Assembly (NCBI RefSeq): GCF_008000775.2
Contig: NZ_CP042905.2
Coordinates: 3,000,001-3,032,000 of the forward strand
DNA from: Promethearchaeum syntrophicum
GTDB lineage: Archaea; Asgardarchaeota; Lokiarchaeia; Sigyniarchaeales; Promethearchaeaceae
Length of the DNA stretch: 32,000 nt
Direction of reading: 5' to 3'
Each line of letters begins with the position of its first letter. The stretch's first letter is position 1. Both the position numbers and the translations under genes were made by a program. The notes beneath the pieces are model-generated. The model had not been told where the DNA came from, made no database searches, and worked only from the letters and a program-made list of their open reading frames with translations. Below are positions 1 to 30,296 of this stretch, piece by piece.

Positions 1-909
1 GTGGGAAAAGAGTTAAAAAATGGGTATATTGTTGGAGCTTCGTTCTTTTTAGGTTCTTCAGAATTCTATAATAATTTAATTGCTATGGATGAAGAAGAAC
101 GTAAATTAATTAGAATGAATTCCGTCCTTAAAATTAATCAGCTCTATGGCGGGGAAAAATTAAGACGATTGCAACGAATAGAATCACGTTTCTTTAACTC
201 GGGAATGTATGTGACCTTACTGGGGGCAGTTGCATCCTATCAATTGGAAGATGGTCGGGTAGTAAGTGGAATAGGAGGTCAATTTAATTTCGTTAATATG
301 GCACAAGAATTACACAATGGAAGATCTATTATCTGTTGTAGTAGTACGCGAGGTTCTGGGAAAAAGACCAAATCTAATATTAAATTTTCCTATGGACATA
401 CTTCAATTCCTAGATATCTTAAAGATATTGTAGTTACAGAGTACGGAATTGCAGATTTACGGGGTACTAGTGATGAAGATTGTATTAAAGAAATGCTAAA
501 CATAACAGATTCGCGCTTTCAAGAATCTTTATTAAAAGAAGCGAAGAAAGCGAAAAAAATAAATAATGACTATAAGATTCCGGAGAAATTTAAAAATAAC
601 ACCCCAAAAGGTCTGGTGGACAAATTTAGTTCTTTTAGCGAGAGGGGGTTGTTTAAAACATTTCCGTTCGGTCATGATTTCAATGAAGATGAACTCTCAA
701 TAGCTGTTGCATTAAAAACCGTAAAAAATCATGCTGAAGCTCATAAATTGGATATAATTAAGACTTTAATCAAATCTCCTAATTCAAGAACTATAGAAAA
801 AGCCCATCACTATTTGGAATTGTTAGAACTCGAAAATCCAGAAACCAGTCATGATAAAATTAGCCAGAAATTACTACTCAAAGGCTTGAAATTAACGGGA
901 AAGATATAG
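1..909 (+). CDS. acetyl-CoA hydrolase/transferase family protein (4-hydroxybutyrate CoA-transferase-like), C-terminal part; 5' end lies outside the window
   Basis: The frame is open from base 1. It carries the C-terminal-domain signature of the family: SGIGGQFNF...SIICCSSTRGSGKKTKSNIKF...IVVTEYGIADLRGTSDEDCIKEMLNITDSRFQESLLKEAKK. Confidence 0.8.
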   Translation: MGKELKNGYIVGASFFLGSSEFYNNLIAMDEEERKLIRMNSVLKINQLYGGEKLRRLQRIESRFFNSGMYVTLLGAVASYQLEDGRVVSGIGGQFNFVNMAQELHNGRSIICCSSTRGSGKKTKSNIKFSYGHTSIPRYLKDIVVTEYGIADLRGTSDEDCIKEMLNITDSRFQESLLKEAKKAKKINNDYKIPEKFKNNTPKGLVDKFSSFSERGLFKTFPFGHDFNEDELSIAVALKTVKNHAEAHKLDIIKTLIKSPNSRTIEKAHHYLELLELENPETSHDKISQKLLLKGLKLTGKI

Positions 910-916
910 GAAGGTA

Positions 917-974
917 TTTTTTTCTTTTTCAATTCAAATCAATAAAAATTGAAGAAGTTTTCTTTTTTTTTTTT
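917..974 (+). terminator. oligo-T terminator region downstream of the CoA-transferase gene
   Basis: T7 and T5 tracts lie directly after the stop codon. A 7-bp hairpin follows (TTCAATT 928-934 / AATTGAA 947-953), then a T12 run at 963-974. Archaeal termination typically occurs at oligo-T tracts. Confidence 0.4.
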
Positions 975-1492
975 GTAGAAATTTAATCACAATTGGTGAA
1001 ATAAAAAAACAAAATCGGATTATGATTTTCAGTAAATATTTTATAACGTAATTAATCCTATTGCATTTCTCTCTTATACAGCAGGGTTGTGTTCCCCAGA
1101 TTTTTCTTATATCTGCTAATTTAAGTTTCTTGCGATATTTCACTCTTAGAGTGACTTTTTCTGCTTTTAGCTTCTCAAATGTTTCTGATCTATAAGAATT
1201 TACCGTATCTTTTGAAAAAAGTTGTTTTCTGCGTATATAGAAGTTCGCCGCTGAAATTTTGTAAATTTTTTTTGATCAAAAGACGAAATATTACCAAATT
1301 ATTTATCTAGAAAACGATTTAAAAAAAAAATTTATAACCAATATTGATCAAACTCTTTTCAATGAATTAACAAAAAACACAATTAAAATACCAGATCGAT
1401 TATTAAGAATCAATGAAATCAAAATGAATTTCTACAATTCATGAATTCTTGTGTTCAATGTGAAATTCGTTCTGGTTAATGAAATTTAAGTT

Positions 1493-2059
1493 TTGATAAA
1501 AATGGAGTATCTTAAAGCTGATATTGAATCTCTTGGTGAAAGAACCTCAGAAGAAATCATCAAAGATGAAGTATTAGATTTCATGAAAGCTTGTTATCAA
1601 TGTGGAACTTGTTCGGGTTCATGTCCCTCAGGACGTAGGACTGCGATAAGAACTCGTCAACTGATCAGAGAATCATTGCTAAATATAGAAAAAGTTCTTG
1701 CCGATCCAGATATATGGATGTGTACCACATGTTTCACTTGTTTTGAGCGATGTCCCAGATCACTCCCTACGACCAATATAATCCTCAAATTGCGTAATTT
1801 AGCATGTCAAAGAGGTTTTATGATGGCGTCCCATAAAAGCTTAACTCATATTTTATTTAAAACTGGTCATGGAGTCCCTTTAGGAGGAACAGATAATAAA
1901 TGGACACAAGCACGTGTTTCCTATGGATTACCAAAAATTCCCCCAACAACACATTCACATCCAGAAGCTGTAAAAGAAGTTGAATTATTAATGAAATCAA
2001 CAAATTTTGATAAATTAGTTGATTATAAATCTGAAGAAACTAGCAATGAACAAAAATAA
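1493..2059 (+). CDS. hdrC: heterodisulfide reductase subunit C-like protein (two 4Fe-4S motifs)
   Basis: Two CxxCxxCxxxCP motifs are present: CYQCGTCSGSCP and CTTCFTCFERCP. The size is typical of HdrC. The ORF-track start is a TTG at 1493; the ATG at 1502 (MEYLK) is the more likely start. Confidence 0.85.
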   Translation: MIKMEYLKADIESLGERTSEEIIKDEVLDFMKACYQCGTCSGSCPSGRRTAIRTRQLIRESLLNIEKVLADPDIWMCTTCFTCFERCPRSLPTTNIILKLRNLACQRGFMMASHKSLTHILFKTGHGVPLGGTDNKWTQARVSYGLPKIPPTTHSHPEAVKEVELLMKSTNFDKLVDYKSEETSNEQK

Positions 2060-2130
2060 AATTTACAAAAGAAATAAAAAAAATCTTTTCACCACATAAA
2101 AAAATAGGAGATCGTTCGGGGACTTGCAAA

Positions 2131-2907
2131 ATGAGCAGAAAATTTAAAATTGGAATTCAAGAGTTCGAATCATGTGGAAAAGATATAATTAATCTTTTAA
2201 ACTTAAGACCTGAGATGGAAAAATTACTTAAGAACGTGGAAATTACTCTCTTAGGATACACATCTAACATTGACTGGTCAAGATACCCAAGTATAAAAAT
2301 TCGGGAAGAAATATCAGAAACGGATAAATTTGATGTTATTTTATGCATTGGAAGTATTTTACCCGGACAAGAAAAAAGAATCCATGATTTACGGAATAAA
2401 ACAATACAAATTGTAGCAGTTGGCGCTTGCTCTCTATATGGTGTTCGGCCATCAATCTCCACAAGTGGTTTCACGAATGAGGAGTGGGATGAAGTGGAAA
2501 AAGTTACCAAAAACAAGGTTCCAGAATATCAAGATCTTTTTCGTAAATCTGTGTGTGAAATTGTGAAAACAGAATATAGAATACCCGGATGTCCAATAGA
2601 TGAATATTCATTTATGAAATTTATATATGACCTCATTGAGGGTAAATTACCTCGCCTTGAAGTAGCCCCGGTGTGTTGGGAATGTAAATTGAAAGGTAAC
2701 GAATGTATTTTTATGACTAAAGGAATAGTCTGTTTAGGTCCAATAACTCAATCAGGTTGTGGCGCTCGTTGTCCAACACTCGAAAATAAGCCATGTAGCG
2801 GTTGTGGGGGTTTACTCATCGATGCCAATTTAAAGGAATGGTATCAGATGGTCCTTAAATATGGAAAAACAATTGAGGAAGTCAACAAATTCTTTGTTAG
2901 CAGGTAA
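2131..2907 (+). CDS. [NiFe]-hydrogenase small-subunit-like Fe-S protein (sulfhydrogenase delta HydD / FlxC-like); no large-subunit partner in the window
   Basis: It is colinear with the NADH-ubiquinone oxidoreductase 20-kDa / HydD fold: VAVGACSLYG, IPGCP, PVCWECKLKGNECI, CLGPITQSGCGARCP, CSGCGG. The N-terminal CxxC of the proximal cluster is reduced to ESCGKD. Confidence 0.7.
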   Translation: MSRKFKIGIQEFESCGKDIINLLNLRPEMEKLLKNVEITLLGYTSNIDWSRYPSIKIREEISETDKFDVILCIGSILPGQEKRIHDLRNKTIQIVAVGACSLYGVRPSISTSGFTNEEWDEVEKVTKNKVPEYQDLFRKSVCEIVKTEYRIPGCPIDEYSFMKFIYDLIEGKLPRLEVAPVCWECKLKGNECIFMTKGIVCLGPITQSGCGARCPTLENKPCSGCGGLLIDANLKEWYQMVLKYGKTIEEVNKFFVSR

Positions 2908-2915
2908 GATATATC

Positions 2916-5390
2916 ATGGAAAAAACACAATCAAGCACATTAAATAATATTGATATAAAACAAAAAGGTCAGAAAATAGGCGTTTTTGTTTGTCATTGTG
3001 GGAGTAATATAAATGGAGTGGTTGATTGCAAAGCATTAGCTGAGGAATCTCTTAAAAACCCTGGAGTCATTTTTGCTACGGATTATAAGTTCTTGTGTAG
3101 TGATCCTGGGCAACTTCTAATAAAAGACAAAATCGAAGAATTTGGTCTAGATCGAGTGGTTGTAGCTGCTTGTAGTCCCCGAATGCATGAAAAAACATTC
3201 CGTCGTGTATGTCGAAAGGCAGATCTGAATCCTTTTCTCTTTGAGCAAGCAAATATTCGTGAACATTGTACTTGGGTTCATATGAATGAAAAAGAAAAAG
3301 CACACAAAAAGGCAGGGGATATAATTGCAATTTCATGTGCTAGAGCTAAAGAACTGGATATTCTTGATATTATCACTGTACCTATTACAAAAAATGCACT
3401 TATTGTCGGAGGAGGAATAGCGGGAATATCAGCCGCTCTTGATCTGGCAGATATGGGAATTCCTGTAACTCTTGTTGAGTCAACTCCAACAATTGGTGGA
3501 AATATGGCACGATTAGACAAAACTTTTCCAACAATGGATTGTTCAGCTTGTATTTTAACACCAAAAATGACAGATATTGGGCAACATCCGAACATTAATT
3601 TGATGACCTATTCTGAAATTCTCGAAGTAAATGGTTATATTGGAAATTTCGATGTCAAGATTAAGAAAAAACCTCGTTATATAAAAGAAGATAAATGTAA
3701 TGGTTGTGGCGATTGTGTACCTGTGTGTCCAGCAATTACGTCAAATCCCTTTGAAATGCATATGAGTCCAATTAAAGCAGTTTCTATTCCGTTTCCTCAA
3801 GCAGTTCCACAATTATTTACTATTGACATGGATTCTTGCATTAAATGCGGTAATTGTGAGAAAGCATGTGAACTTGAAGCTATTGATCTAAATCAAGCCC
3901 CAATAATAGTTGAGGAAAAATTTGGAGCAATAATATTAAGCACAGGATTTAAAGTGGCAGATTTAACTTTAGTGCATCCTGAATATCATTATGGAGAATA
4001 TTTGAATGTAATTAGCCATCTTGAACTTGAACGAATGCTAACTTCATTTGGTCCCTCTGAAGGTCAAATTATTCGCCCATCGGATTTTAATCGTCCAAAA
4101 AAAATACTGTTCATTTCATGTGTTGGATCCCGATCACAACGCGAAGGCTATAAACCATATTGCTGTAATGTAGGTTGTATGGCAGCTATGAAAGAAGCAC
4201 GATTAATTATTGAACATCATCCAGATACTCAAATAGATATTTCTTATATGGATGTTCGGGCTTCTGGAAAAGGATATGAAGAATTCTGGGAAAAAGCCGC
4301 TCACGAATATGGGATAACCTATTTCCGTGGACGTATTGCAGAATTATATCAAGATGAGATAACACAAAACATCGTCGCTCGTTTAGAAGATACTCTTCTT
4401 AATCAACTTTTTGAAATTGAATATGATCTGGTTATTCTTGTTGGTGCGGTGGATCAAATGGATGATTTACCTAGTATAGTGAAAACTCTAAATCTTCAAC
4501 AAGGAGCAGATGGATGGTTGTTGGAAGCTCATCCAAAACTCCGACCTGTCGATACACATACAGGAGGAATTTTTGTAGCGGGATTTGTCACAGGACCAAA
4601 AGATATTCCTGCTACCGTCGCTCAAGCAAAAGCAGCGGCTTCCGGTGTTGCCACCTTAATTATGCAAGGAGAAGTCGAAATTGAGCCATATTATGCCGTA
4701 ATTGATCCAGAAATGTGTGGAGCGTGTAAAAAATGCGAAGTTACTTGCCCGTTTGGAGCTCCAGTTTTAGTTACTGATAAAGCACAAGAAGGAAAAATCT
4801 TAGAAATTAATCCCGCTTTATGTACAGGTTGTGGAACGTGTGTCGCAGAATGCAAATATGGAGCAATTCAACAAAATAATTTCACAAGCCGGCAATTATT
4901 TGCATCAACTGATAGAGCATCTGAAAAAATTGAATTGGATATTCCCGATTCCAAATGGGAACCAAATATTCTTATATTCGCTTGCAATTGGTGTAGCTAT
5001 ACTGGGGCCGATTTAGCAGGGACCAGTCGGATTCAATACCCTCCCAATGCACGAGTCGTTCGGATGATGTGTTCGGGAAGATTCGAATTAAGTTTTGGAA
5101 TTCAAGCTTTACTTAATGGATTTGATGGAGTAATGGTAGCTGGGTGTCATCTTGGAGATTGCCACTATACCTCAGGAAATTATAAAATGGAGCGTAGAGC
5201 AGAATATATGCCCCCTATACTTAGAAATTTAGGAATTAATCCAAAGAGATTTCGACTTGAGTGGTGTAGCGCATCAGAGGGGTTACGGTGGGCAGAATTA
5301 AATAAACAATTTGTTGAAGAATTGAAAATCTTAGGTCCTTCTTCCATGCGAAAACGGGTTCAACAAATAAGAAATAACATAAATAAATAA
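2916..5390 (+). CDS. hdrA: heterodisulfide reductase subunit A fused to a C-terminal MvhD-like domain
   Basis: N-terminal VFVCHCGSNI; FAD motif VGGGIAGISAALDLA; MDCSACILTPK. Four ferredoxin-type motifs: CNGCGDCVPVCP, CIKCGNCEKAC, CGACKKCEVTCP, CTGCGTCVAEC. The C-terminus carries the MvhD signature ILIFACNWCSYTGADLAG...VRMMCSGR...GVMVAGCHLGDCHY. Confidence 0.9.
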   Translation: MEKTQSSTLNNIDIKQKGQKIGVFVCHCGSNINGVVDCKALAEESLKNPGVIFATDYKFLCSDPGQLLIKDKIEEFGLDRVVVAACSPRMHEKTFRRVCRKADLNPFLFEQANIREHCTWVHMNEKEKAHKKAGDIIAISCARAKELDILDIITVPITKNALIVGGGIAGISAALDLADMGIPVTLVESTPTIGGNMARLDKTFPTMDCSACILTPKMTDIGQHPNINLMTYSEILEVNGYIGNFDVKIKKKPRYIKEDKCNGCGDCVPVCPAITSNPFEMHMSPIKAVSIPFPQAVPQLFTIDMDSCIKCGNCEKACELEAIDLNQAPIIVEEKFGAIILSTGFKVADLTLVHPEYHYGEYLNVISHLELERMLTSFGPSEGQIIRPSDFNRPKKILFISCVGSRSQREGYKPYCCNVGCMAAMKEARLIIEHHPDTQIDISYMDVRASGKGYEEFWEKAAHEYGITYFRGRIAELYQDEITQNIVARLEDTLLNQLFEIEYDLVILVGAVDQMDDLPSIVKTLNLQQGADGWLLEAHPKLRPVDTHTGGIFVAGFVTGPKDIPATVAQAKAAASGVATLIMQGEVEIEPYYAVIDPEMCGACKKCEVTCPFGAPVLVTDKAQEGKILEINPALCTGCGTCVAECKYGAIQQNNFTSRQLFASTDRASEKIELDIPDSKWEPNILIFACNWCSYTGADLAGTSRIQYPPNARVVRMMCSGRFELSFGIQALLNGFDGVMVAGCHLGDCHYTSGNYKMERRAEYMPPILRNLGINPKRFRLEWCSASEGLRWAELNKQFVEELKILGPSSMRKRVQQIRNNINK

Positions 5391-5399
5391 ATAAAATAT

Positions 5400-6476
5400 G
5401 TGAGAGTGAAAATCATTACTAAAAAAAGGAATTATAGGGAAGGAAATATTTCAGACATCATAAAATTTATTGATGAAATTTTAAAAACATATACTGTTAT
5501 TGCACCAACAAAAATTGAAGGAAAACAAACAAAATTCACTCAAATTTCTTCAAGCACTGAAATCCTTCTTAATCCGAATCACCAAACAAGTTTCTCTTTT
5601 AAAGAGTGGTTACTTCCACGAAATCAAATTTTATTGCAGTATAATTTCGATAAAAATGACATTACCATAGATGATTCCGTTGATTTTTCTTCTAAAAAAC
5701 GGATATTATTCGGACCTCATCCATGTGACCTCCATTCAATTCAAATTCTTGATAAAATCTTTTTAGAAGAAAAAGATTTGGATGTTCATTATAAAAAATT
5801 ACGTGAAAATACATTAATTATTGGATTAGGATGTAAAGAACCATTTAAAAATTGTTTTTGTGCAAGTGTAAATACACTTGAGCCACCAGATGGAACTTAT
5901 GATTTATTCCTTTATCTAAAAGGGAAAAAATTCTATGCATTTGAAGGTTCTTCTGAAGGGGCAGATTTAATAAAAAAATTGAAATCTAAAGTGTCAATTG
6001 ATGGAGAGAAACAGATATCCTTAATAAATAAACACATTGCTTCTTCACAAACATTTAAATTCCCAAAAGATGAAGATATTGGAGCAAAAATCAAAGAAAC
6101 CTACGGATCTGAGTTTTGGGATGATCTTGGTAAAAAATGTTTTGGATGCGCAGGTTGCACAATCGTTTGCCCAACATGTTATTGCTTCTTTGTGGATGAC
6201 AAAGTAGAAAATGATGGAAAGAAAAAAATGTATAAACGTATTAGAGATTGGGATTCTTGTACTCTAAATAATTGGGCTTTAGCAGCAGGAGGTCATAATT
6301 TTCAAAATAATCGAGGAATTCGCTTAAATAGACGATTTATGCACAAATTCTCACAATTAAAAACGAAATTAGGAAGGATTGCTTGTGTTGGATGCGGTCG
6401 TTGTATTGATATATGTCCTACAGGTGCAAGTAACCCAGTAAATGTCATAAAAGATCTAATTAAATTCAAAAAATAA
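5400..6476 (+). CDS. 4Fe-4S cluster protein, sulfhydrogenase beta (HydB) / FlxB / AsrA-like
   Basis: Motifs CFGCAGCTIVCPTCYCF and CVGCGRCIDICP, plus the upstream GCKEPFKNCFCAS, are typical of HydB/AsrA-type subunits. The start is a GTG; there is a 9-bp gap from hdrA. Confidence 0.7.
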   Translation: MRVKIITKKRNYREGNISDIIKFIDEILKTYTVIAPTKIEGKQTKFTQISSSTEILLNPNHQTSFSFKEWLLPRNQILLQYNFDKNDITIDDSVDFSSKKRILFGPHPCDLHSIQILDKIFLEEKDLDVHYKKLRENTLIIGLGCKEPFKNCFCASVNTLEPPDGTYDLFLYLKGKKFYAFEGSSEGADLIKKLKSKVSIDGEKQISLINKHIASSQTFKFPKDEDIGAKIKETYGSEFWDDLGKKCFGCAGCTIVCPTCYCFFVDDKVENDGKKKMYKRIRDWDSCTLNNWALAAGGHNFQNNRGIRLNRRFMHKFSQLKTKLGRIACVGCGRCIDICPTGASNPVNVIKDLIKFKK

Positions 6477-6506
6477 TAATCTTGTTAAAGAACTGGATGT
6501 AAAGAT

Positions 6507-7388
6507 ATGGATAATAAAAAAATAGACACTAAAACGAACAGTTGGAAACCGATGACTGCCCGTCTTTCTAAAATTGTGCCTCAATCTTCTTTTGAAAAAT
6601 TGTATTCAATAGAACTTGAAAATCCGAATGAAAAAAAGCAGTTCACTTGGATGCCGGGTCAATTTCTTGAGCTTTCAGTTTTTGGAATTGGGGAAGCTCC
6701 ATTTTCAATTTCGAGTTCCCCTACAAGTGGTACTTTGGAAATATGTGTTCGGGCAACTGGATCAATTACTAATGCACTTGAAAAAATGAAAGAAGGAGAA
6801 AAAGTAGGGATACGTGGACCATTTGGGAACTCTTTTGTTGTTCCTGAAGCAAAAGGAAAGAATTTAGTTTTAGTTGCAGGAGGGATTGGTCTTGTTCCTT
6901 TACGTTCAATGATAAATTATGTATTGGATAAGCGGGAAGAATTCAAAGAAGTATTTATTTTTTACGGAACACGAGATCCAACCCAAATTCTGTTCCAAGA
7001 TGAAATTGAACAATGGCAAAAACGCAATGATATTCAATTTATGTTAACGGTCGATCGAGGATCTCCTGATGCAGGATTTGGTGAACCAGATCCTAGTGGA
7101 AAATATCAAGGAAATGTAGGGGTGGTAACAACTCTTTTTTCAAAAATAGATATTCCGTCAAAAAATACAATGGGATTTATTGTTGGACCCCCAGTGATGT
7201 TTAAATTTGTTGTTAAGGAATTTGAAAAACTCCAAATTAAACCATCAAATATTATTGTTTCACTTGAACGAGTTATGCATTGTGGAATCGGCAAATGCGC
7301 ACATTGTCAAATTGGGGATATTTTAGTATGTAGAGATGGTCCCATATTCACTTATGAACAAGTTCAATCAATGCCAGATGCAATTTAG
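6507..7388 (+). CDS. FAD/NAD(P)-binding 2Fe-2S oxidoreductase, sulfhydrogenase gamma (HydG) / FlxA / AsrB / PyrK-like
   Basis: Ferredoxin-reductase-type barrel (PGQFLELSV...APFSISS), nucleotide-binding LVLVAGGIGLVPLRS, and a C-terminal 2Fe-2S motif CGIGKCAHCQIGDILVCRDGP. Confidence 0.8.
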   Translation: MDNKKIDTKTNSWKPMTARLSKIVPQSSFEKLYSIELENPNEKKQFTWMPGQFLELSVFGIGEAPFSISSSPTSGTLEICVRATGSITNALEKMKEGEKVGIRGPFGNSFVVPEAKGKNLVLVAGGIGLVPLRSMINYVLDKREEFKEVFIFYGTRDPTQILFQDEIEQWQKRNDIQFMLTVDRGSPDAGFGEPDPSGKYQGNVGVVTTLFSKIDIPSKNTMGFIVGPPVMFKFVVKEFEKLQIKPSNIIVSLERVMHCGIGKCAHCQIGDILVCRDGPIFTYEQVQSMPDAI

Positions 7389-20477: not shown

Positions 20478-22334
20478 ATGGCGTTTGATTCAGAAAATGG
20501 CCTTCCTTTTCTTGCTACTGCATTGTTGACTAGCGTTGGGTTGTTGATGCTTATAGTTTCGCTTTTAAAAGGAAACAAAAGAATTAAACGTTGGATAATA
20601 CCTGTAATCATTCACAATATTTCTCTCTATGTGCAATTCGTAGATAATTCATTTTTTGAAGATAAGTATACCGTTATTCACCTTATCATATCTGGGATAG
20701 GTTTAATATCCTTAATCATAATAGCGATTATAGAATATAACGAGGAATTTCCTCTAAATCACGCGATTGAACGAAAAAGAATTCTGCAATATATTTTTTA
20801 TTCACTTACTTCAATTCTCGTATATATTCTTCTTTTACACCTAATCTTTAATACATCAGAAAAACTCTATACATTTTTTTATTATATCCTTGCTATTGGA
20901 ATTTTATTCTCAATTTTTTTGCTTTTAAGAATTTATAAAAAAAAAAAAAGAACACCAACTCATATGAGCATAGTTATTATCCTTGTGATAATAGAAGTAG
21001 ATCTAATTTTATATATAATTACAGATTTTACGACGACCGATTTATATCCATTTCTTCGTGTTTTTGATGCCGGAATAGGAATTGGGATGTTATTTTTTGC
21101 TTTTATCGCATCGGTCGAAAATCAATTATTAGAGATCTATGAAAAAGAAAGGTTGCAAAATAAATTATTAAGGCGAACTCAAGATAAAATCATTTCCCAA
21201 ACTCAATTAAGTTCTATTCAGATTATTTCAGGAGGGTTTGCTCATGATTTTAATAATATTCTCACTTCAATCATTGGAAATATAAGTTTAATTGAAGATT
21301 ACCCAATATTTCAAGGAGAAGGAAAGGAATTCATCATTGATCTTAAATCAGCATCATCTCAAGCAAAAAATATGGTAAATCAGCTTTTGGTATTTTCTAA
21401 GGGAGAGGAATTTTTAAATAAGGAAATCATCACCTTTAAAGAAATATTGAAAATTACCACTGATTTTACATTACGAGGGAGAAAATCAAAACCTATATAT
21501 GATATTGATAAAAATTTATGGGCTATATATGGAGATCCAATCCGAATAAGTCAAATCATTCAGAATTTGGTGATTAATGCTGATCAATCCATGCCAGAAG
21601 GAGGTATAATTGAGCTGAATGCACAAAATGTGGAAATCGAGGATAATAATCAGTTCAATTTACAACCTGGAAAATATCTTCTATTTCAGATAAAAGATTC
21701 TGGTGTCGGAATTCCTTCCAATATTCAAGAAAAAATCTTTACTCCATTTTTTACTACCAAACCAGAAGGACAGGGATTTGGATTAAGCATATGTAAGAAA
21801 ATTGTAGAAGATCATCAAGGTTATATAAATTTCAAGACAACAGTTGACAAAGGTTCGATTTTTTATTTTTATACGCCTGCAAAAATGAATAGTACAATAT
21901 TAAATGTGAAACATGAACAACTAAAAGATAAGTTTTCAGGTTTTGGGTTAATTTTAGACGATAATATCTTGGTTTTACGTGTTATTGAAAGCATGCTTAA
22001 GAATTTGGGAATCAAAGCAATTACATCTTCTGAAAGTACAACATTTCTTTCAACATATGAAGATCTGCTTAAGAAAAAGATAAACGTTGATATTCTAATT
22101 GTAGATCTAACTTTACCAGGTGATATCGGAGGAAAGCAATTAATTAATGATATTCGAAGATTCAATCCAGAAGCTTACGTGGTTGTTTCAAGCGGATATT
22201 CTAATGATTTTGTATTACAAAATTATCAAGATTACGGATTTAATGATTTACTTAGGAAACCTTATGATAAGAATGAATTAATAAAGGTATTAGAGAAAGC
22301 TTTCAAAAATAAAAACCCTAACCCAAATATTTAA
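20478..22334 (+). CDS. membrane-bound hybrid sensor histidine kinase with a C-terminal receiver domain
   Basis: Multi-TM N-terminus; H-box GGFAHDFNNILTSIIG; N/G boxes QNLVINADQSMPEGG, DSGVGIP, FFTTKPEGQGFGLSICKKIV. The REC domain reads LILDDN...ILIVDLTLPG...LRKPYD. Confidence 0.85.
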   Translation: MAFDSENGLPFLATALLTSVGLLMLIVSLLKGNKRIKRWIIPVIIHNISLYVQFVDNSFFEDKYTVIHLIISGIGLISLIIIAIIEYNEEFPLNHAIERKRILQYIFYSLTSILVYILLLHLIFNTSEKLYTFFYYILAIGILFSIFLLLRIYKKKKRTPTHMSIVIILVIIEVDLILYIITDFTTTDLYPFLRVFDAGIGIGMLFFAFIASVENQLLEIYEKERLQNKLLRRTQDKIISQTQLSSIQIISGGFAHDFNNILTSIIGNISLIEDYPIFQGEGKEFIIDLKSASSQAKNMVNQLLVFSKGEEFLNKEIITFKEILKITTDFTLRGRKSKPIYDIDKNLWAIYGDPIRISQIIQNLVINADQSMPEGGIIELNAQNVEIEDNNQFNLQPGKYLLFQIKDSGVGIPSNIQEKIFTPFFTTKPEGQGFGLSICKKIVEDHQGYINFKTTVDKGSIFYFYTPAKMNSTILNVKHEQLKDKFSGFGLILDDNILVLRVIESMLKNLGIKAITSSESTTFLSTYEDLLKKKINVDILIVDLTLPGDIGGKQLINDIRRFNPEAYVVVSSGYSNDFVLQNYQDYGFNDLLRKPYDKNELIKVLEKAFKNKNPNPNI

Positions 22335-24110: not shown

Positions 24111-25874
24111 TTAGTTACATTGATTAGGATTTAGTGCCATTGATAAAGTACTGGCTAAATCTATAATGGTATAAGGTTTATGCAAAAAGAAAACCATGAT
24201 TTCATAATCATTTCTTTCTTTAATTTCAGGTATCTCATATCCACTAGAAAGTATAATTTTAACATTAGGATTAATTTTTTGTAAAATAGTTGTGCATTCT
24301 TGACCTCCTATTCCACCAGGAATAGTGCAATCTAAAATTAATAGATCATAGGGTTTACCAATTTTATAAGATTTTTCGTATTTATCACAAGCTTCTGAAC
24401 CAGTTTTCGACATATCAACGGTAAAACTAATTTTTTTTAGCATTTGCTCCAGAGTTCTTAAAATTGCAACATCGTCGTCCATTATCAGAATTCTTTTTCC
24501 TGAAAAATTTGGTATTTTTTTATCAGGTACGATCTCGTTTTTCGAAGTTCCTGGAATTGCTGGTAATATAACCATAAATTTTGTTCCTTGACCGACCTGT
24601 GATTTTACTTCGATATACCCCAAATGATTTAAGACAATCATCTTGGATATATACAAACCTAACCCAGTCCCCTCTTTTTTGGTTGTGAAAAATGCTTCAA
24701 ATACGGATTTTAACTTATTTTCAGATATCCCAACTCCCGTATCTTGAAAAATAATTTTTAAATAATCTCCTGGTTGTAAATTAAATTCATTACCTCTTGA
24801 ACATGTACTATTTTCCAGATAGATATCTAAATGACCCCCTTCTTGCATTGCTTGAATTGCATTAATCACTAGATTTTGGATAACTTGAGAAATTTGACTT
24901 TTATCCCCTTTAATCCCATATAAATTCTCTTGAATGTGAATTTTTGGTTTAATGTTACTCCCTCGTGAAGAAAATCTAACCACGTCTTTTATTAATTCTT
25001 CGAAGTTCTGAATATTTTCAATTTTAGGCTGGTGACTCTTTGAAAAATTTTGTAGTTGAGTAGTTAAGAGCTTTGCACGGATGGAGGCTTTTTCGGCTTC
25101 TTCAATTAATAATTTTGTATCTGCGGGAATTTCAAAATCATTAATGAAATCAGTATTAAGTAAACTTAAAACTCCCAATATGCTAGTAAGAAGATTATTG
25201 AAGTCATGAGCAATTCCTCCAGCCAATGTTTGTAAAGAAATGAGTTTTTCTTGGTCGATTAATTTCTTTTGTGTTTGTTTTAAAATTTCAAATTGTTCTT
25301 GTTGTTTTTTTATAAGTGCATTGATGATATAATGCAAGATCATTGAAATTATAAAGGCTACTAAAATATTCGGTATTAAATCTGTTAAAGTATTTGCATA
25401 ATATACACCTGAATCAGGATCAATCGGTTGCCCCCAAGTAAATTTTTCGGTGATGATCCCAATGGTAATTCCAATTATATCGATTAAAAATAGGAGGATT
25501 GAGAAAAGGGGGGTTTTTGTAAGGATTCCTGATATTATTAGAATCAATGAAAGAAATGTGAACATATATGCGGAAAATATCTCCAATCCTCTAAAAATAA
25601 ACATAAAATTCAAACCTAAAATTAAAATATATGAACTGAGATTATATTTACCCAATTTTAATAAAATGAACGAAATTAATGCTATGAGAAAAACAATTAG
25701 GGAAAAAAAACTAAATGTTTCTTCGTTAAGATAAATAATAATCGTGATAAGAAAGGTTGCAACTATTAGAATAGTTAGAAAACTTTTAATTATTAATTCT
25801 CTTACCCATTCTATAGTAATTTTCTCTTCCTCATTAAATTTCCATGTTTTTAGTTTAGGGAATAATCTCTTCAT
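24111..25874 (-). CDS. membrane-bound hybrid sensor histidine kinase with a C-terminal receiver domain (paralog of 20478-22334)
   Basis: Multi-TM N-terminus; GGIAHDFNNLLTSILG; QNLVINAIQAMQEGG; DTGVGIS; FFTTKKEGTGLGLYISKMIV. The REC domain reads ILIMDDD...LLILDCTIPGG...LHKPYT. Confidence 0.85.
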   Translation of the reverse strand: MKRLFPKLKTWKFNEEEKITIEWVRELIIKSFLTILIVATFLITIIIYLNEETFSFFSLIVFLIALISFILLKLGKYNLSSYILILGLNFMFIFRGLEIFSAYMFTFLSLILIISGILTKTPLFSILLFLIDIIGITIGIITEKFTWGQPIDPDSGVYYANTLTDLIPNILVAFIISMILHYIINALIKKQQEQFEILKQTQKKLIDQEKLISLQTLAGGIAHDFNNLLTSILGVLSLLNTDFINDFEIPADTKLLIEEAEKASIRAKLLTTQLQNFSKSHQPKIENIQNFEELIKDVVRFSSRGSNIKPKIHIQENLYGIKGDKSQISQVIQNLVINAIQAMQEGGHLDIYLENSTCSRGNEFNLQPGDYLKIIFQDTGVGISENKLKSVFEAFFTTKKEGTGLGLYISKMIVLNHLGYIEVKSQVGQGTKFMVILPAIPGTSKNEIVPDKKIPNFSGKRILIMDDDVAILRTLEQMLKKISFTVDMSKTGSEACDKYEKSYKIGKPYDLLILDCTIPGGIGGQECTTILQKINPNVKIILSSGYEIPEIKERNDYEIMVFFLHKPYTIIDLASTLSMALNPNQCN

Positions 25875-26672: not shown

Positions 26673-27431
26673 TTAAATTTCTCGAATTTTTATTTTCTTT
26701 TTTAATGACTCAGAAAATGAATAATTCAGTAGTTTTTGATTTCTTAAAATAAATTTACTCCCAATTCCTTTAAATCCTTCTATAATTCCAGTTATATTCT
26801 TAGGTTTTCCATTTTTTGAATAATTTACTTTAGCTTCCGAAATAGCATGCAGTGCAAAGAAAGGATTTCCTAAAACATCCAAAAATCGTTGAGCTTTTTT
26901 ATCCCCAACATCTACTAATCCCTCAAGGAAATATTTTTGATCCTCGGCCGAAATCTCTTCTTTTAAGGATTCTTGATCAATATTGGGAATGATTTCGGGT
27001 AAAAATCCGTTAGATTGCTCTAATTTTGCAATTTCAACTATTATTTTAGCAGTTTCAAGAGCATTTTTTGTAGGGATAACTGGAATATTCATTTTATACG
27101 TTGCATATATTAAAGCCCCATAAATTGAACTTTCCTTAACAAATTTTCTGGAAAAAGTTTTTTCTAGAGATTCAATAATTAATATTGGGAATTGAAAAAC
27201 ATTCTTTAATTTGGATAGCTGTTGGAAAAACCGAGTATCAAAAATTGAAGAAACTAAGTCATCCCCCCTCTTTCGTTCAATTGCACAACGCGAAGATAAA
27301 ATGTAATCACCGAAATCAAGAGTTTCAATACGAATATCACATTCTAAATCATCAAAAGCTCTTCTAATTTCTCCTCGTTCCCGTTCATCAATAATAATTT
27401 TTGGGGGCGAATCAGAGATTTTATTGTTCAT
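26673..27431 (-). CDS. xpf: short-form archaeal XPF: ERCC4 nuclease domain + (HhH)2
   Basis: Complete ERCC4 signature IIIDERERGE...LDFGDYILSSRCAIERKRGDDL, then two HhH motifs (VGDKKAQRFLDVLG; FKGIGSKFILRN). It is colinear with crenarchaeal short XPF as I recall it. Confidence 0.85.
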   Translation of the reverse strand: MNNKISDSPPKIIIDERERGEIRRAFDDLECDIRIETLDFGDYILSSRCAIERKRGDDLVSSIFDTRFFQQLSKLKNVFQFPILIIESLEKTFSRKFVKESSIYGALIYATYKMNIPVIPTKNALETAKIIVEIAKLEQSNGFLPEIIPNIDQESLKEEISAEDQKYFLEGLVDVGDKKAQRFLDVLGNPFFALHAISEAKVNYSKNGKPKNITGIIEGFKGIGSKFILRNQKLLNYSFSESLKKKIKIREI

Positions 27432-27480
27432 TAAAAAATTGCACCCTAAACATTTATTTGCTGTATAATTAAAATCATTT

Positions 27481-28167
27481 TTGAAGATGAGTGATAGTCT
27501 AATGTTGAGTAAATTACATGTTATTATAGACGGAGATTCATATGAAAACTTCCAAAAATTGATAGATGAACTAGAAAAACTCGATTTTTATGTAGAACGG
27601 AAAGGTATTGGGAAAAAAATTGTCCAAATCCCCCCTAATGGGGGAGTACTAATCTTAAAATCAAAAGACTTGGAAGGAAAATCTTCAATGTCGAATATCC
27701 AAAAAAAAATGCAGGATTTCTTTAAACTAATACCGAATGGGGTAATTATTTATGAGAATTTCAACCAATTAGGTGGAATAAAGAGAGATCTAATTCAAAA
27801 AATATTGTTTAATCAAATTTTTAACACAGAATCGACATTTAACGGAATTGTCCCAACGAGAAAACCATCAGAAACCGCATTATGCATTAAAAGTATAGCA
27901 AAAAGGGAGCAAATTGAAGATAATCCTCCAATTTTAAGTAGAACAAAAAGAAAGTCAAAGTATCTTTCAGATTATCAAGTTTTTTTTATTGAAGGCTTAC
28001 TTCAATGTGGACCTAAAAAAGCCAAAGCCCTTCTGAAGGTTTTTAATACCCCTCAAGAAATAATTAATACTATTCTTTATGATCCAGATAAAATTTCACG
28101 AATAAAGGGATTTGGTAAAAAATTTATAGAAACTAATCAAAAACTTCTTCAAGGTAATCTAAAATAG
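27481..28167 (+). CDS. ERCC4-like + (HhH)2 paralog lacking the nuclease catalytic motif (ERCC1/EME1-like, degenerate)
   Basis: It is colinear with the adjacent XPF (VIIDGDS, VIIYENF, PTRKPSETALCIKSIAKRE, CGPKKAKALLKVF, IKGFGKKFIETNQKLL). GDY is absent and the ERK position reads LILKSKDLE. The track start is a TTG at 27481; an ATG lies at 27487. Confidence 0.65.
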   Translation: MKMSDSLMLSKLHVIIDGDSYENFQKLIDELEKLDFYVERKGIGKKIVQIPPNGGVLILKSKDLEGKSSMSNIQKKMQDFFKLIPNGVIIYENFNQLGGIKRDLIQKILFNQIFNTESTFNGIVPTRKPSETALCIKSIAKREQIEDNPPILSRTKRKSKYLSDYQVFFIEGLLQCGPKKAKALLKVFNTPQEIINTILYDPDKISRIKGFGKKFIETNQKLLQGNLK

Positions 28168-28202: not shown

Positions 28203-28574
28203 ATGCAAGATTCTTTTGATTCAAATTGTCATTTCAAGGTAGGATGTAAATTTTGGATTAAAGGATCAAATGATTTTACTATGGGTCCAGGCGATGTTAA
28301 GTTAATTAAAAAACTAATAGAATTTAAAAATCTGACAAAAGCAGCCAATGTTTGTAACTATTCCTACAAATATGCTTGGAAAAAGATTAAAAATATTTCA
28401 GAAAAAACCGGTAAAGCAATCGTTAAAAGCCACAGAGGAGGTAAAGGCGGTGGTGGCGAGGTTTCGGTGACTCCATGGGGAATCCATTTGGTATCATTAT
28501 TTGAAAGTGCTGAAATGCAACTAAATAAAGTGATCAGTAAAATTAATGCTGATTTTGTAAAAAAACAATCATAA
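28203..28574 (+). CDS. ModE N-terminal-domain-like winged-HTH protein
   Basis: LTKAANVCNYSYKYAWKKIKNISEKTGKAIVKSHRGGKGGGGEVSVTPWG matches the ModE/LysR-type HTH pattern (SYKxAW...GGxGGGG...T). No molybdate-binding Mop domain is present. Confidence 0.7.
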   Translation: MQDSFDSNCHFKVGCKFWIKGSNDFTMGPGDVKLIKKLIEFKNLTKAANVCNYSYKYAWKKIKNISEKTGKAIVKSHRGGKGGGGEVSVTPWGIHLVSLFESAEMQLNKVISKINADFVKKQS

Positions 28575-28622: not shown

Positions 28623-30296
28623 TTGAATAGTGGCATAACTAAAATTGAAAATACAACACCGGAAGAAGAATTCACAATCATTATTGACATTGGAGAGGGA
28701 AATACAAAAGTCGGGTTTGCTGGAGATGAGAAGCCAATAATGTTTCCGACTGTTGTAGGAAAACCAAAGTATAGACAAACCATGATGACAGGTGTTAACG
28801 CCCAAGAGATTTACGTTGGGGAAGATACAACAAAAATGCGGGGAGTTCTCAAAATTGCTCATCCAATTAAGCGGGGAACAGTAATGGATTGGGATAATTA
28901 TTATGCTATATTAAATCACATATTCTTTGACACCTTGCGAGTAGATGCAAAAAAATGCAATGTCATTTATCTGGTGCCCCCCTTAACAAACCCCGAAACG
29001 TACCAATATTTTGCCAAAGTTTTATTTGAAACTCACCAAGTTAAATCTGTAGCAATAATTGATACTGCAACCACATCAGTATTTTCTATTGGGGAAACAA
29101 CGGGATTATCTATTGAGATTGGGTGTGGATTATGCACTATTTGTCCAGTAATGGATGGAAAAATCTTTGGTCCAAGCGTTCAAAAACTTAATTTAGCGGG
29201 AATGGATGTCGAGGATTATTTAGAAAAGTTGCTAACTCAGTACGGAATCTTTCAAAAGAGGGAGATTATCCAAGATATTAAAGAAAGAACCTTAAAAATT
29301 GCAATGGATCCTAATGCGGCTTCTCAAGATCCTTCTTTCAATGTGAAATATTTACTCCCTGATGGAGAAAAATTGGAGTTAAGTTCTTACTTCATAATTA
29401 TGGCAGGGGAAATTATTTTTAACCCAATTTTAGTGGGAATTAGTGGTAGGAGTATACAAAGTGCAATTATTGATTCTCTTCGTGCGACAGATCCTAATTA
29501 TTGGAGACAATTACTTCAAAAGATTGTATTGTCAGGAGGAACTTCCTACATTAGTGGATTAAAGGACAGGTTGGAAGCTGAAATAAAAAAAAACCTAGTT
29601 GAACTAGGAGATTTACCTCCTATTGTTGATGAGACAACAAATATTCTAGTACCAGAACCAGTAAATGGAAATTCATCTTCCTTAGAAGATTCAACTTCTA
29701 TGGTGCAAATTCTGGGAAAAGAAAGTAAACCAGAAAATTGTTCACGATGTGGCGAATTATTAGAGAAAGGAAGTGATTTTTGTCAATCTTGTGGACAGCA
29801 TGTGGATCAAAAACAAATTGAAATATTAGGTGCAACACATTCATCATATCCTACAATATGTTCAAAATGTTTTCAAAAATTAGATGGGATAATTTCAGTC
29901 TGCCCTTATTGTAATAATAAATTAAAACCTATAATCTCTGAAGATAAATTAGATCGTAAAGAAAAGAAACTTTTAAAGAAAACCTCTGTTTCTGAAAAGG
30001 AATTGAAAGAATTATCATTACAAGTGGAAAGTGAATATGGTGGCTTTGATGAATTAGAAGAAATTAATGAGAAAAAACCTCCACTTATCGGTAAGCTAAA
30101 TATAAAAGTCCCTAAAAAGGATCCAGAAGAAATAGTTCAAATTGTGTTACATGATGATAGATTTTACGCTGCTTTTAAAGGCGCTTCAGTTTTAGGGTCT
30201 TTACCAAGTTTCAAGCCCTTTTTGGTTGATAAAGCCACTTTTGATGCAAATCCAGATGCTTGTAAGGTTGACTTTTATTCTATCATTAATCAATAA
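28623..30296 (+). CDS. actin-family (actin/Arp-like) protein with an internal double zinc-ribbon insertion
   Basis: Actin hallmarks appear in the right order: IIIDIGEGNTKVGFAGDEKPIMFPTVVGKPKY, LAGMDVEDYL, IIQDIKERTLKIA, YLLPDGEKLEL, VLSGGTSYISGLKDRL, RFYAAFKGASVLGSL. An insertion spans residues about 326-503 and contains CSRCGELLEKGSDFCQSCG and CSKCFQKLDGIISVCPYCN. The start is a TTG. Confidence 0.85.
   Translation: MNSGITKIENTTPEEEFTIIIDIGEGNTKVGFAGDEKPIMFPTVVGKPKYRQTMMTGVNAQEIYVGEDTTKMRGVLKIAHPIKRGTVMDWDNYYAILNHIFFDTLRVDAKKCNVIYLVPPLTNPETYQYFAKVLFETHQVKSVAIIDTATTSVFSIGETTGLSIEIGCGLCTICPVMDGKIFGPSVQKLNLAGMDVEDYLEKLLTQYGIFQKREIIQDIKERTLKIAMDPNAASQDPSFNVKYLLPDGEKLELSSYFIIMAGEIIFNPILVGISGRSIQSAIIDSLRATDPNYWRQLLQKIVLSGGTSYISGLKDRLEAEIKKNLVELGDLPPIVDETTNILVPEPVNGNSSSLEDSTSMVQILGKESKPENCSRCGELLEKGSDFCQSCGQHVDQKQIEILGATHSSYPTICSKCFQKLDGIISVCPYCNNKLKPIISEDKLDRKEKKLLKKTSVSEKELKELSLQVESEYGGFDELEEINEKKPPLIGKLNIKVPKKDPEEIVQIVLHDDRFYAAFKGASVLGSLPSFKPFLVDKATFDANPDACKVDFYSIINQ

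Follow-up and report, generated by a model that had tools for sequence, protein, structure and literature searches.

An active short XPF and a catalytically degenerate XPF paralog, divergently encoded in an Asgard archaeon: a putative asymmetric nuclease

The cultured Asgard archaeon Promethearchaeum syntrophicum MK-D1 encodes, side by side and in opposite directions, a short XPF nuclease with a complete active site and a second protein of the same two-domain construction from which that active site is gone. Both genes lie in the window analysed here (32,000 nucleotides, positions 3,000,001 to 3,032,000 of contig NZ_CP042905.2; coordinates are those of the window unless another locus is named). 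The second protein is a paralog of the first, ERCC4-(HhH)2 in construction and catalytically degenerate, (HhH)2 or HhH2 standing for the paired helix-hairpin-helix motifs of this family. It seems on the whole probable, if by no means assured, that the two act together as a putative asymmetric heterodimer like XPF-ERCC1 or MUS81-EME1, one that would have arisen independently of both. A preliminary description, made by reading the DNA itself, had placed two divergent open reading frames here, 49 bp apart, and they are present exactly as it gave them:

26673..27431, (-) strand: active short XPF, 252 residues; ERCC4 nuclease domain, linker of non-canonical type, (HhH)2 into which a beta-hairpin is inserted, a motif like the PCNA-interacting peptide (PIP), basic tail
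27481..28167, (+) strand: catalytically degenerate XPF paralog, 228 residues from a TTG codon; ERCC4-fold pseudonuclease domain, canonical linker, (HhH)2
27432..27480, unstranded: divergent intergenic region, 49 bp, A+T-rich, with a TATA-like TATAATTAAAA element

The true start of the paralog is more plausibly the ATG at 27487, since its orthologues begin MSDNLNS; the protein then has 226 residues and the gap to the XPF gene widens to 55 bp. (The NCBI start is at 27502, and the name that NCBI attaches to the 100% identical P. syntrophicum protein is "helix-hairpin-helix domain-containing protein".) G+C content is about 30%. The corresponding gaps in orthologous loci with gene coordinates that could be read are approximately 50-130 bp, and the intergenic region of 49-55 bp is possibly a shared bidirectional promoter.

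An intact XPF and its degenerate neighbour

The identity of the first protein is straightforward. It matches Pfam ERCC4 with E = 6.4e-29, and its best matches in the PDB are the Pyrococcus Hef nuclease domain (4.5e-20) and the XPF of Aeropyrum pernix, ApeXPF (2e-14). Its AlphaFold2 model is confident (predicted local distance difference test score, pLDDT, 90.7) and superimposes on the Hef nuclease domain with a template-modelling (TM) score of 0.90 and a root-mean-square deviation (rmsd) of 1.4 A in a Foldseek comparison. The catalytic signature of the ERCC4 family is complete, every motif falling in invariant columns of an alignment of 28 active XPFs:

27378..27398, (-) strand: IIIDERE, residues 12-18, the first acidic cluster of the active site; D15 and E18 invariant
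27303..27311, (-) strand: GDY, residues 41-43; D42 invariant
27258..27278, (-) strand: ERKRGDD, residues 52-58, the ERKx3D signature; E52, K54 and D58 invariant
26787..26828, (-) strand: VNYSKNGKPKNITG, an insertion of 14 residues between the two HhH motifs; predicted beta-hairpin, model strands 201-204 and 210-214

A Pfam scan of this protein reports no HhH match, and the insertion lies between the two motifs. Both are there nonetheless: the alignment with ApeXPF reaches residue 194, the model has helices at 162-199 and 225-236, and both hairpin Gly motifs are retained, so that what the preliminary description had read, a full ERCC4 signature followed by two HhH motifs, stands. The same insertion (YTxxGNPKG) recurs in related active XPFs and in one branch of the paralog family, the B-type considered below. 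Scores fall well below the equivalog cut-offs of NCBIfam (94.6 against 300 bits for NF040956, Arch_Xpf_endonucase; 139 against 610 for the Hef model), and the window XPF is a member of a divergent subfamily of XPF. Decay of the first hairpin, which would have paralleled human XPF, was considered and set aside for this protein: the hairpin Gly is lost in five of six members of one subclade only (that of the XPF at locus L005), and the window XPF keeps it.

The second protein is less easily recognized. A Pfam scan finds HHH_5 (3.6e-7) as the sole match and does not detect ERCC4; NCBIfam Hef is matched at 3e-14. Yet BLASTP aligns it directly with its neighbour (E = 2e-11, 34% identity over 118 residues), and hhalign comparison of a profile of 37 diverse family members with one of the 28 active archaeal XPFs gives a probability of 100% and E = 9.8e-43 over 220 columns. 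That alignment recovers all four of the blocks by which the two proteins had been matched in the preliminary description. Against the PDB, the family profile finds full-length ApeXPF (9e-8), the Hef nuclease domain (1j22, residues 18-149; 1e-5) and the Hef HhH2 domain (1x2i; 7e-4). The AlphaFold2 model (pLDDT 77, predicted TM score 0.76) leads Foldseek to ApeXPF (7e-7) and to the Hef nuclease domain (TM 0.78-0.80, rmsd 3.1 A), with further matches to Mus81-Eme1, Zip2-Spo16 and FANCM-FAAP24. Profile and structure comparison thus find both domains, ERCC4 fold and (HhH)2, in the paralog.

What it has lost is the active site. In the hhalign columns the GDY of XPF is faced by K-I-V, and E52, R53 and K54 by L57, I58 and L59; extraction of these columns across the family agrees. 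The reported absence of GDY and ERK is accordingly real, and the acidic residues that would bind metal are not retained: the Asp of GDY and the Glu of ERK are gone. Two Asp residues do persist at motif positions of the window copy (D17, facing D15 of XPF, and D63, facing D58), both of them variable across the family, and among the 37 diverse members there is no conserved acidic residue in the N-terminal domain. The protein does not carry the catalytic signature DxRE ... GDXn ERKX3D and belongs with the pseudonucleases of the XPF/MUS81 (ERCC4) superfamily. In place of the signature there is something new: Q49, I50, P51, P52 and G54 are invariant or nearly so in the close family, putting a Q-I-P-P-x-G motif (27613-27645) where GDY used to be. 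Near-invariance of this motif in the A-type subfamily, to which the window paralog belongs, may mark a new binding surface in the old active-site groove, by analogy with the groove of ERCC1 that binds XPA.

27613..27675, (+) strand: KKIVQIPPNGGVLILKSKDLE, the degenerate active-site region; K-I-V for GDY, L-I-L for ERK, and the newly conserved IPP-x-G
27985..28149, (+) strand: paralog (HhH)2 (Pfam HHH_5 3.6e-7); hairpin 1 LQCGPKKAKALL, hairpin 2 IKGFGKKF, ending in NQKLL

The (HhH)2 domain has fared differently: G172, G177 and L184 are invariant and K180 nearly so among the 37 diverse members, and all 46 family members have the Gly of hairpin 1.

This is not an isolated oddity of one genome. 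A profile searched exhaustively against 1.8 billion cluster representatives yielded 299 relatives. (The breadth of the family is owed to that search; a word-indexed search with a diverse profile found few distant members, and a metagenome scan with a close alignment returned 3 loci.) Column extraction over the degenerate clusters together with active XPF and Hef proteins of 190-330 residues identifies about 45 clusters, at 50% identity, in which the whole catalytic signature is missing. GDY and ERK occur in no degenerate member; the active XPF and Hef proteins keep the signature with few exceptions. Conservation in the family peaks in the linker (REQIEDxPPxLSR) and in HhH2. Wherever a member has a name it is Promethearchaeum sp. 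or "Promethearchaeota archaeon", bar one 1.4-kb fragment labelled Patescibacteria, which is probably mis-binned. Between Promethearchaeum species the ratio of nonsynonymous to synonymous substitution rates (dN/dS) lies at 0.16-0.28 in the paralog and at 0.08-0.10 in XPF, values that indicate maintenance of the paralog by purifying selection. Because of these values, and because some 45 clusters all lack the motif, the paralog is to be regarded as a maintained gene and not as a pseudogene.

Linkers, tails and the question of partnership

What might a dead nuclease be doing next to a live one? The features that bear most directly on the question lie outside the active site. The canonical linker, which joins the nuclease domain to HhH2, is 19-22 residues long (exactly 21 in the Hef modules), with a conserved Arg and a basic pattern; its mean charge is +3.0 in 43 active short XPFs and +1.6 in five Hef modules. 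All 46 dead paralogs keep it, at 20-21 residues and with mean charges of +1.2 and +1.9. The 10 XPFs that adjoin paralogs have linkers of 21-28 residues that are devoid of the conserved Arg and carry a mean charge of -1.8, and six XPFs of the clade that is sister to them have similar linkers (mean charge -1.5). (These are column-based statistics of length and charge, used in place of a strict regular expression that proved too narrow: it matched 8 of 49 active XPFs.) In the window the two linkers, and the tail of XPF, are as follows:

26940..27014, (-) strand: XPF linker, residues 140-164; 25 residues, net charge -6, without the canonical Arg and basic pattern; pLDDT 67-83
27904..27978, (+) strand: paralog linker REQIEDNPPILSRTKRKSKYLSDYQ; 21 residues after REQ, basic, the most conserved stretch in the family
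26676..26738, (-) strand: XPF C-terminus; PIP-like QKLLNYSF (residues 232-239) and Lys-rich tail SESLKKKIKIREI

R142, D147, P150 and R154 of the paralog linker are invariant among the 37 diverse members.

The C-termini differ as well. The near-PIP motif QKLLNYSF that had been pointed out at the end of XPF is indeed there, and in nine of nine XPFs that adjoin A-type paralogs NQxLLxxS[Y/F], or a sequence close to it, precedes a K/R-rich tail of 16-25 residues. The tail is predicted to be disordered (pLDDT below 50), and the PIP-like motif before it may bind PCNA. The paralogs usually end 4-9 residues past NQxLL. That the paralog has no aromatic residues after NQKLL, as the preliminary description also had it, is true of the window copy and fails as a rule of the family, since 3 of 46 members have a canonical PIP box (QHLLRDFF at L012 and QTLLKKYF in P0025, for example).

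ERCC1 is thought to have originated by duplication of XPF and subfunctionalisation through complementary loss, and archaeal XPF and Hef proteins dimerise through both of their domains, and of the active sites in a dimer just one cuts (PMC2034474). The linker and tail features of the window XPF and its paralog would be complementary in just the way that subfunctionalisation into a heterodimer predicts, and it is mainly because this reciprocal pattern matches the model proposed for XPF-ERCC1 that a heterodimer is favoured here. One can sketch how such an enzyme would work: 1) XPF and the paralog would pair through their nuclease-fold and (HhH)2 domains. 2) XPF would contribute the sole active site. 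3) The PIP-like motif and basic tail of XPF would recruit the enzyme to PCNA. 4) The dead subunit, with its canonical linker and HhH2, would hold a 3'-flap or fork substrate by its duplex arm. 5) At its old active site the dead subunit may present a new binding groove (IPP-x-G). 6) The shared divergent promoter region of 49-55 bp would provide for co-expression.

The genes themselves keep company. In the A-type subfamily XPF and paralog are directly divergent at nine loci (the window, L001-L004, L007, L012, L014 and L019), among which paralog identity falls to about 35%: the divergent pairing is conserved among distant relatives. At L013 one small gene has come between the two. At L021 an open reading frame for 565 residues (270-1967) lies directly upstream of the paralog, where XPF would be expected, and the contig ends 270 bp beyond it; judged by eye, this reading frame looks like an insertion sequence (IS) transposase.

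Several observations weigh against the heterodimer. The window XPF has a normal-looking fold and both HhH hairpins, with which it could still form homodimers. To call the linkers complementary is to infer something of what the linker does in XPF. Pairwise identities of XPF and paralog correlate strongly (r = 0.97), and adjacency together with matched divergence would follow from plain vertical co-inheritance too. For P0040 (at L015), a paralog of an intermediate branch outside the A-type, no XPF gene is found in the 2.6 kb upstream or the 4 kb downstream. The basal, B-type paralogs live in other company: they are the last genes of operons with 4-bp overlaps (L005:3700-5762, L010:2521-5783, L011:3005-5696; also L008:1-826). 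These operons encode a protein of about 406-433 residues that, by eye, seems to have a signal peptide and a C-terminal transmembrane anchor; two of three (L010 and L011) also encode a polytopic membrane protein of about 257-260 residues, and L010 a tetratricopeptide repeat (TPR) protein. The partner proteins of the B-type operons have no matches in Pfam. XPF is divergent from the operon at L005, about 5 kb away at L010, and absent within 5 kb upstream at L011, so that it adjoins in only one of three informative cases; this, and the membrane-protein operons themselves, counsel caution about any simple story of pairing. Finally, P0067 (497 residues) is a tandem of two ERCC4-(HhH)2 modules, both without ERK, the first resembling the dead family and the second keeping only "ADY". 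It could be a single-chain pair of pseudonucleases, and to judge by it dead-dead pairing is viable too.

These same observations lend substance to a different proposal, to which we give an appreciable though clearly lesser likelihood: that the dead paralog acts alone, probably as a homodimeric non-catalytic binder of, or scaffold for, branched DNA in the manner of FANCM-FAAP24 or Zip2-Spo16, and is merely co-regulated with XPF, among genes for repair. Its conservation is centred on the linker and HhH2, which are the DNA-binding parts; some members sit in membrane-protein operons or have no XPF nearby; P0067 joins two dead modules; and the paralog model finds both Zip2-Spo16 and FANCM-FAAP24 by Foldseek. 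What this proposal does not readily accommodate is the close divergent pairing with XPF that holds in the A-type to about 35% identity, or the fact that the adjoining XPFs have lost the very linker features that the paralog has kept, which is hard to explain if the two proteins never meet. Single chains provide precedent in both directions. P0076 (1077 residues) is a full-length Hef helicase-nuclease whose own nuclease module is without ERK (VRM instead) and DxRE; a further XPF module, fully active, comes after it (IIIDHRE, GDY, ERKTGVD). The protein is a candidate for an independent, single-chain example of inactive joined to active, if it is not a gene-fusion artefact, and clustering of its modules in the tree suggests internal duplication. 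Dead-active and dead-dead combinations both occur, and the explanation by an independent DNA-binding protein therefore stays alive.

Might the paralog instead be a negative regulator, forming heterodimers that titrate XPF away from its active homodimer, and so exerting dominant-negative control over a flap nuclease that could be dangerous? The two proteins have a common fold and common dimerisation domains, a divergent promoter would permit antagonistic as well as coupled control, and most paralogs are missing the PIP-like basic tail. Even so, it is unlikely: since a single active site suffices in the dimers of archaeal XPF and Hef (PMC2034474), a heterodimer would be expected to be active, and the divergent linker of XPF suggests that XPF depends on the paralog, not that the two are antagonists.

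Origin and surroundings of the pair

The preliminary description had allowed for two histories of an active-inactive pair in an archaeon, as precursor of the eukaryotic arrangement or as convergent with it. The evidence is for convergence and disfavours the role of precursor. A neighbour-joining tree of 114 archaeal sequences, with no eukaryotic ones, gathers the dead family into one clade (bootstrap 59/100; with the first module of P0067 counted in, 70/100). (In the MAFFT alignment the paralog family was split across both modules of P0067.) The dead clade nests, with weak support, inside the group of short XPFs that bear the YTxxGNPKG insertion, an insertion that the basal B-type still has. 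The simplest reading is that the two genes arose when XPF was duplicated within Promethearchaeota, the Lokiarchaeia-type Asgard archaea.

The converse proposition makes the paralog family the orthologue, in archaea, of ERCC1, EME1 or FAAP24, or else their ancestor, and would have heterodimeric XPF-family nucleases predate eukaryotes. It has in its favour a like architecture and a like loss of the active site, in an Asgard archaeon of all places. Comparison of profiles does not bear it out: hhalign against vertebrate ERCC1 yields 6.9% for the paralog family and 73% (E = 3e-5) for active archaeal XPF. The ERCC1 set, it should be said, is vertebrate-only and of low diversity (the query was human ERCC1, 99% identical to primate ERCC1, and the best 120 hits, which were those listed, were all vertebrate), so that signals of deep homology could be missed. 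Pfam Rad10/ERCC1 (PF03834), at E up to 1, matches neither the window paralog nor any of the 37 family members, and no ERCC1, EME1 or FAAP24 chain turns up in PDB profile searches with the family at E up to 10. In the Foldseek comparison ERCC1 ranks 49th, with E = 0.03, against 7e-7 for ApeXPF. To this must be added the nesting in an archaeal clade with a lineage-specific insertion and the restriction of names to Promethearchaeota, bar that one short fragment. Reviews may have mentioned ERCC1-like genes in Thaumarchaeota; literature searches found nothing of the kind.

It is because the family matches archaeal XPF (100%, E 1e-42) and not ERCC1 (6.9%) that convergence is preferred to ancestry: the dead family is likely to have been derived from archaeal XPF and to be convergent with the eukaryotic solution rather than ancestral to it. 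We think it very improbable that the family is a surviving archaeal relative of the lineage behind one or more of the eukaryotic non-catalytic partners (ERCC1, EME1, FAAP24 or Spo16), with asymmetric heterodimers already in the Asgard ancestor, and orthology with, or direct ancestry of, ERCC1, EME1 or FAAP24 is, by a shade, more improbable still. That the second reading frame is a decaying duplicate or a chance resemblance, an idea encouraged by its annotation as just an HhH-domain or hypothetical protein and by the blindness of Pfam to ERCC4 in the window copy, is refuted by a dN/dS well under 1, some 45 clusters with invariant motifs, the match to XPF and a confident fold.

The pair is embedded in a wider conserved block comprising genes for a Band-7 protein, orotidine monophosphate (OMP) decarboxylase, a CAAX protease, XPF, the paralog, a ModE-like helix-turn-helix (HTH) protein, an actin with a double zinc ribbon, and a prenyltransferase. 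The gene that follows the paralog is this one:

28203..28574, (+) strand: ModE-like winged-HTH protein, 123 residues; NCBIfam ModE_repress TIGR00637 1e-15; without the molybdate-binding domain; co-oriented with the paralog

It may be co-transcribed with the paralog. A ModE-like gene, recognized by similarity or by HTH annotation, comes after the paralog at L001-L004, L012, L014 and L019-L021, and L007 and L013 have an unannotated reading frame of similar size there. The actin homologue (28623-30296, (+) strand; Pfam Actin 3.3e-67) has a double zinc ribbon fused to its C-terminus, and a long tail; its gene is found two genes 3' of the paralog in all A-type loci that reach that far, with the prenyltransferase next. 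The CAAX protease gene is on the opposite side of XPF from the paralog. The window also holds two hybrid histidine kinase/response-regulator genes, at 20478-22334 on the (+) strand and 24111-25874 on the (-) strand. The latter sits between the genes for OMP decarboxylase and CAAX protease, where at L007, L012 and L013 there are different genes or no gene; it looks like a lineage-specific insertion beside the XPF block.

Related XPF genes have surroundings of their own. At L017 two intact XPF genes (3171-3860 and 6001-6708), about 85% identical and 2 kb apart, show that XPF was duplicated recently in a related lineage. Nearby are genes for an XPG/FEN1-like protein and for an 852-residue DEAD/Helicase_C protein, and there is no dead paralog within 6 kb. 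The XPF of L005 (neighbourhood 291-6087) keeps company with repair genes: an 873-residue DEAD/ResIII/Helicase_C helicase with a weakly RAD51D_N-like C-terminus, and a small HIRAN-domain protein. The repair neighbourhood of XPF at L010 (1-2175) has an XPG_N/XPG_I nuclease.

Comparison with known systems

In textbooks and reviews the archaeal XPF and Hef proteins are single-gene homodimers, and the heterodimer of active and inactive subunits is a eukaryotic innovation. The literature examined here is in keeping with that: archaea are described as having a single homodimeric XPF, with ERCC1 absent (PMC2034474), and in a 2026 review of the Asgard archaea XPF alone is listed (PMC12993045), as it is in reviews generally. 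No description of the dead-XPF family was found in the literature on Asgard or Lokiarchaeota XPF, ERCC1 and ERCC4, most subscription journals lying outside the search. The pair presents a design known from eukaryotes in a new, archaeal variant; its organism is in culture, and it is readily testable.

A dead paralog beside XPF in a cultured Asgard archaeon can be thought of as a natural and independent repeat of the path that leads, by duplication and subfunctionalisation, to an asymmetric nuclease, and a pair as small as this (252 and 226 residues) is well suited to biochemical tests of what advantage asymmetry confers. A protein family without annotation, some 45 sequence clusters in size, can now be given a name. 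If the heterodimer is real, its architecture evolves readily and is not bound to eukaryotic complexity. If it is not, the family constitutes a new archaeal pseudonuclease DNA-binding protein, tied in part to membrane-protein operons and likewise undescribed. Were the ancestral reading true after all, asymmetric heterodimeric nucleases of the XPF family would predate eukaryotes, going back to their Asgard ancestor.

How, then, does the pair stand in relation to the systems that are already known? The closest to both window proteins, by sequence and by structure, are the homodimeric short XPFs of archaea (ApeXPF, Sulfolobus XPF) and the nuclease-(HhH)2 module of Hef, which have the same two-domain architecture. 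Crenarchaeal XPF is described as PCNA-dependent (PMC2836553), and the window XPF has its PIP-like tail. The difference is that ApeXPF, Sulfolobus XPF and Hef are described as homodimers made by single genes (PMC2034474), whereas in the window a second, dead copy is conserved beside XPF and the XPF linker is non-canonical.

XPF-ERCC1 (Rad1-Rad10) resembles the window pair in having one intact ERCC4 active site and a partner with replaced catalytic residues and a canonical (HhH)2, and in its proposed origin, by duplication of XPF followed by complementary loss (PMC2034474). Even the replacements are alike: the ERK positions are hydrophobic in ERCC1 (L-F-L) as in the window paralog (L-I-L). The paralog is nonetheless unlike ERCC1 in that no specific sequence relationship between them is detectable (6.9% by hhalign, no Pfam Rad10), and its catalytic partner is unlike eukaryotic XPF, being a short XPF of 252 residues without the helicase-like N-terminal domain; the heterodimer, moreover, is here putative. 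We know of no XPA equivalent for the window pair, whose likely cofactor would be PCNA. MUS81-EME1 and MUS81-EME2 share with the pair the combination of a short catalytic subunit and a non-catalytic ERCC4-(HhH)2 partner, both of which are among the Foldseek matches; they differ from it in the extra N-terminal domains of MUS81 and EME1 and the confinement of these two to eukaryotes, and EME1 has no match to the paralog at the level of sequence. FANCM-FAAP24 and Zip2-Spo16, which are also structural matches to the paralog model, have in common with it a pseudonuclease ERCC4 fold and an HhH2 domain that recognises branched DNA. In these complexes both partners are inactive, unlike the window pair, whose XPF has every catalytic residue; the likeness may fit the B-type relatives and P0067 better than it does the pair that is the subject of this analysis.

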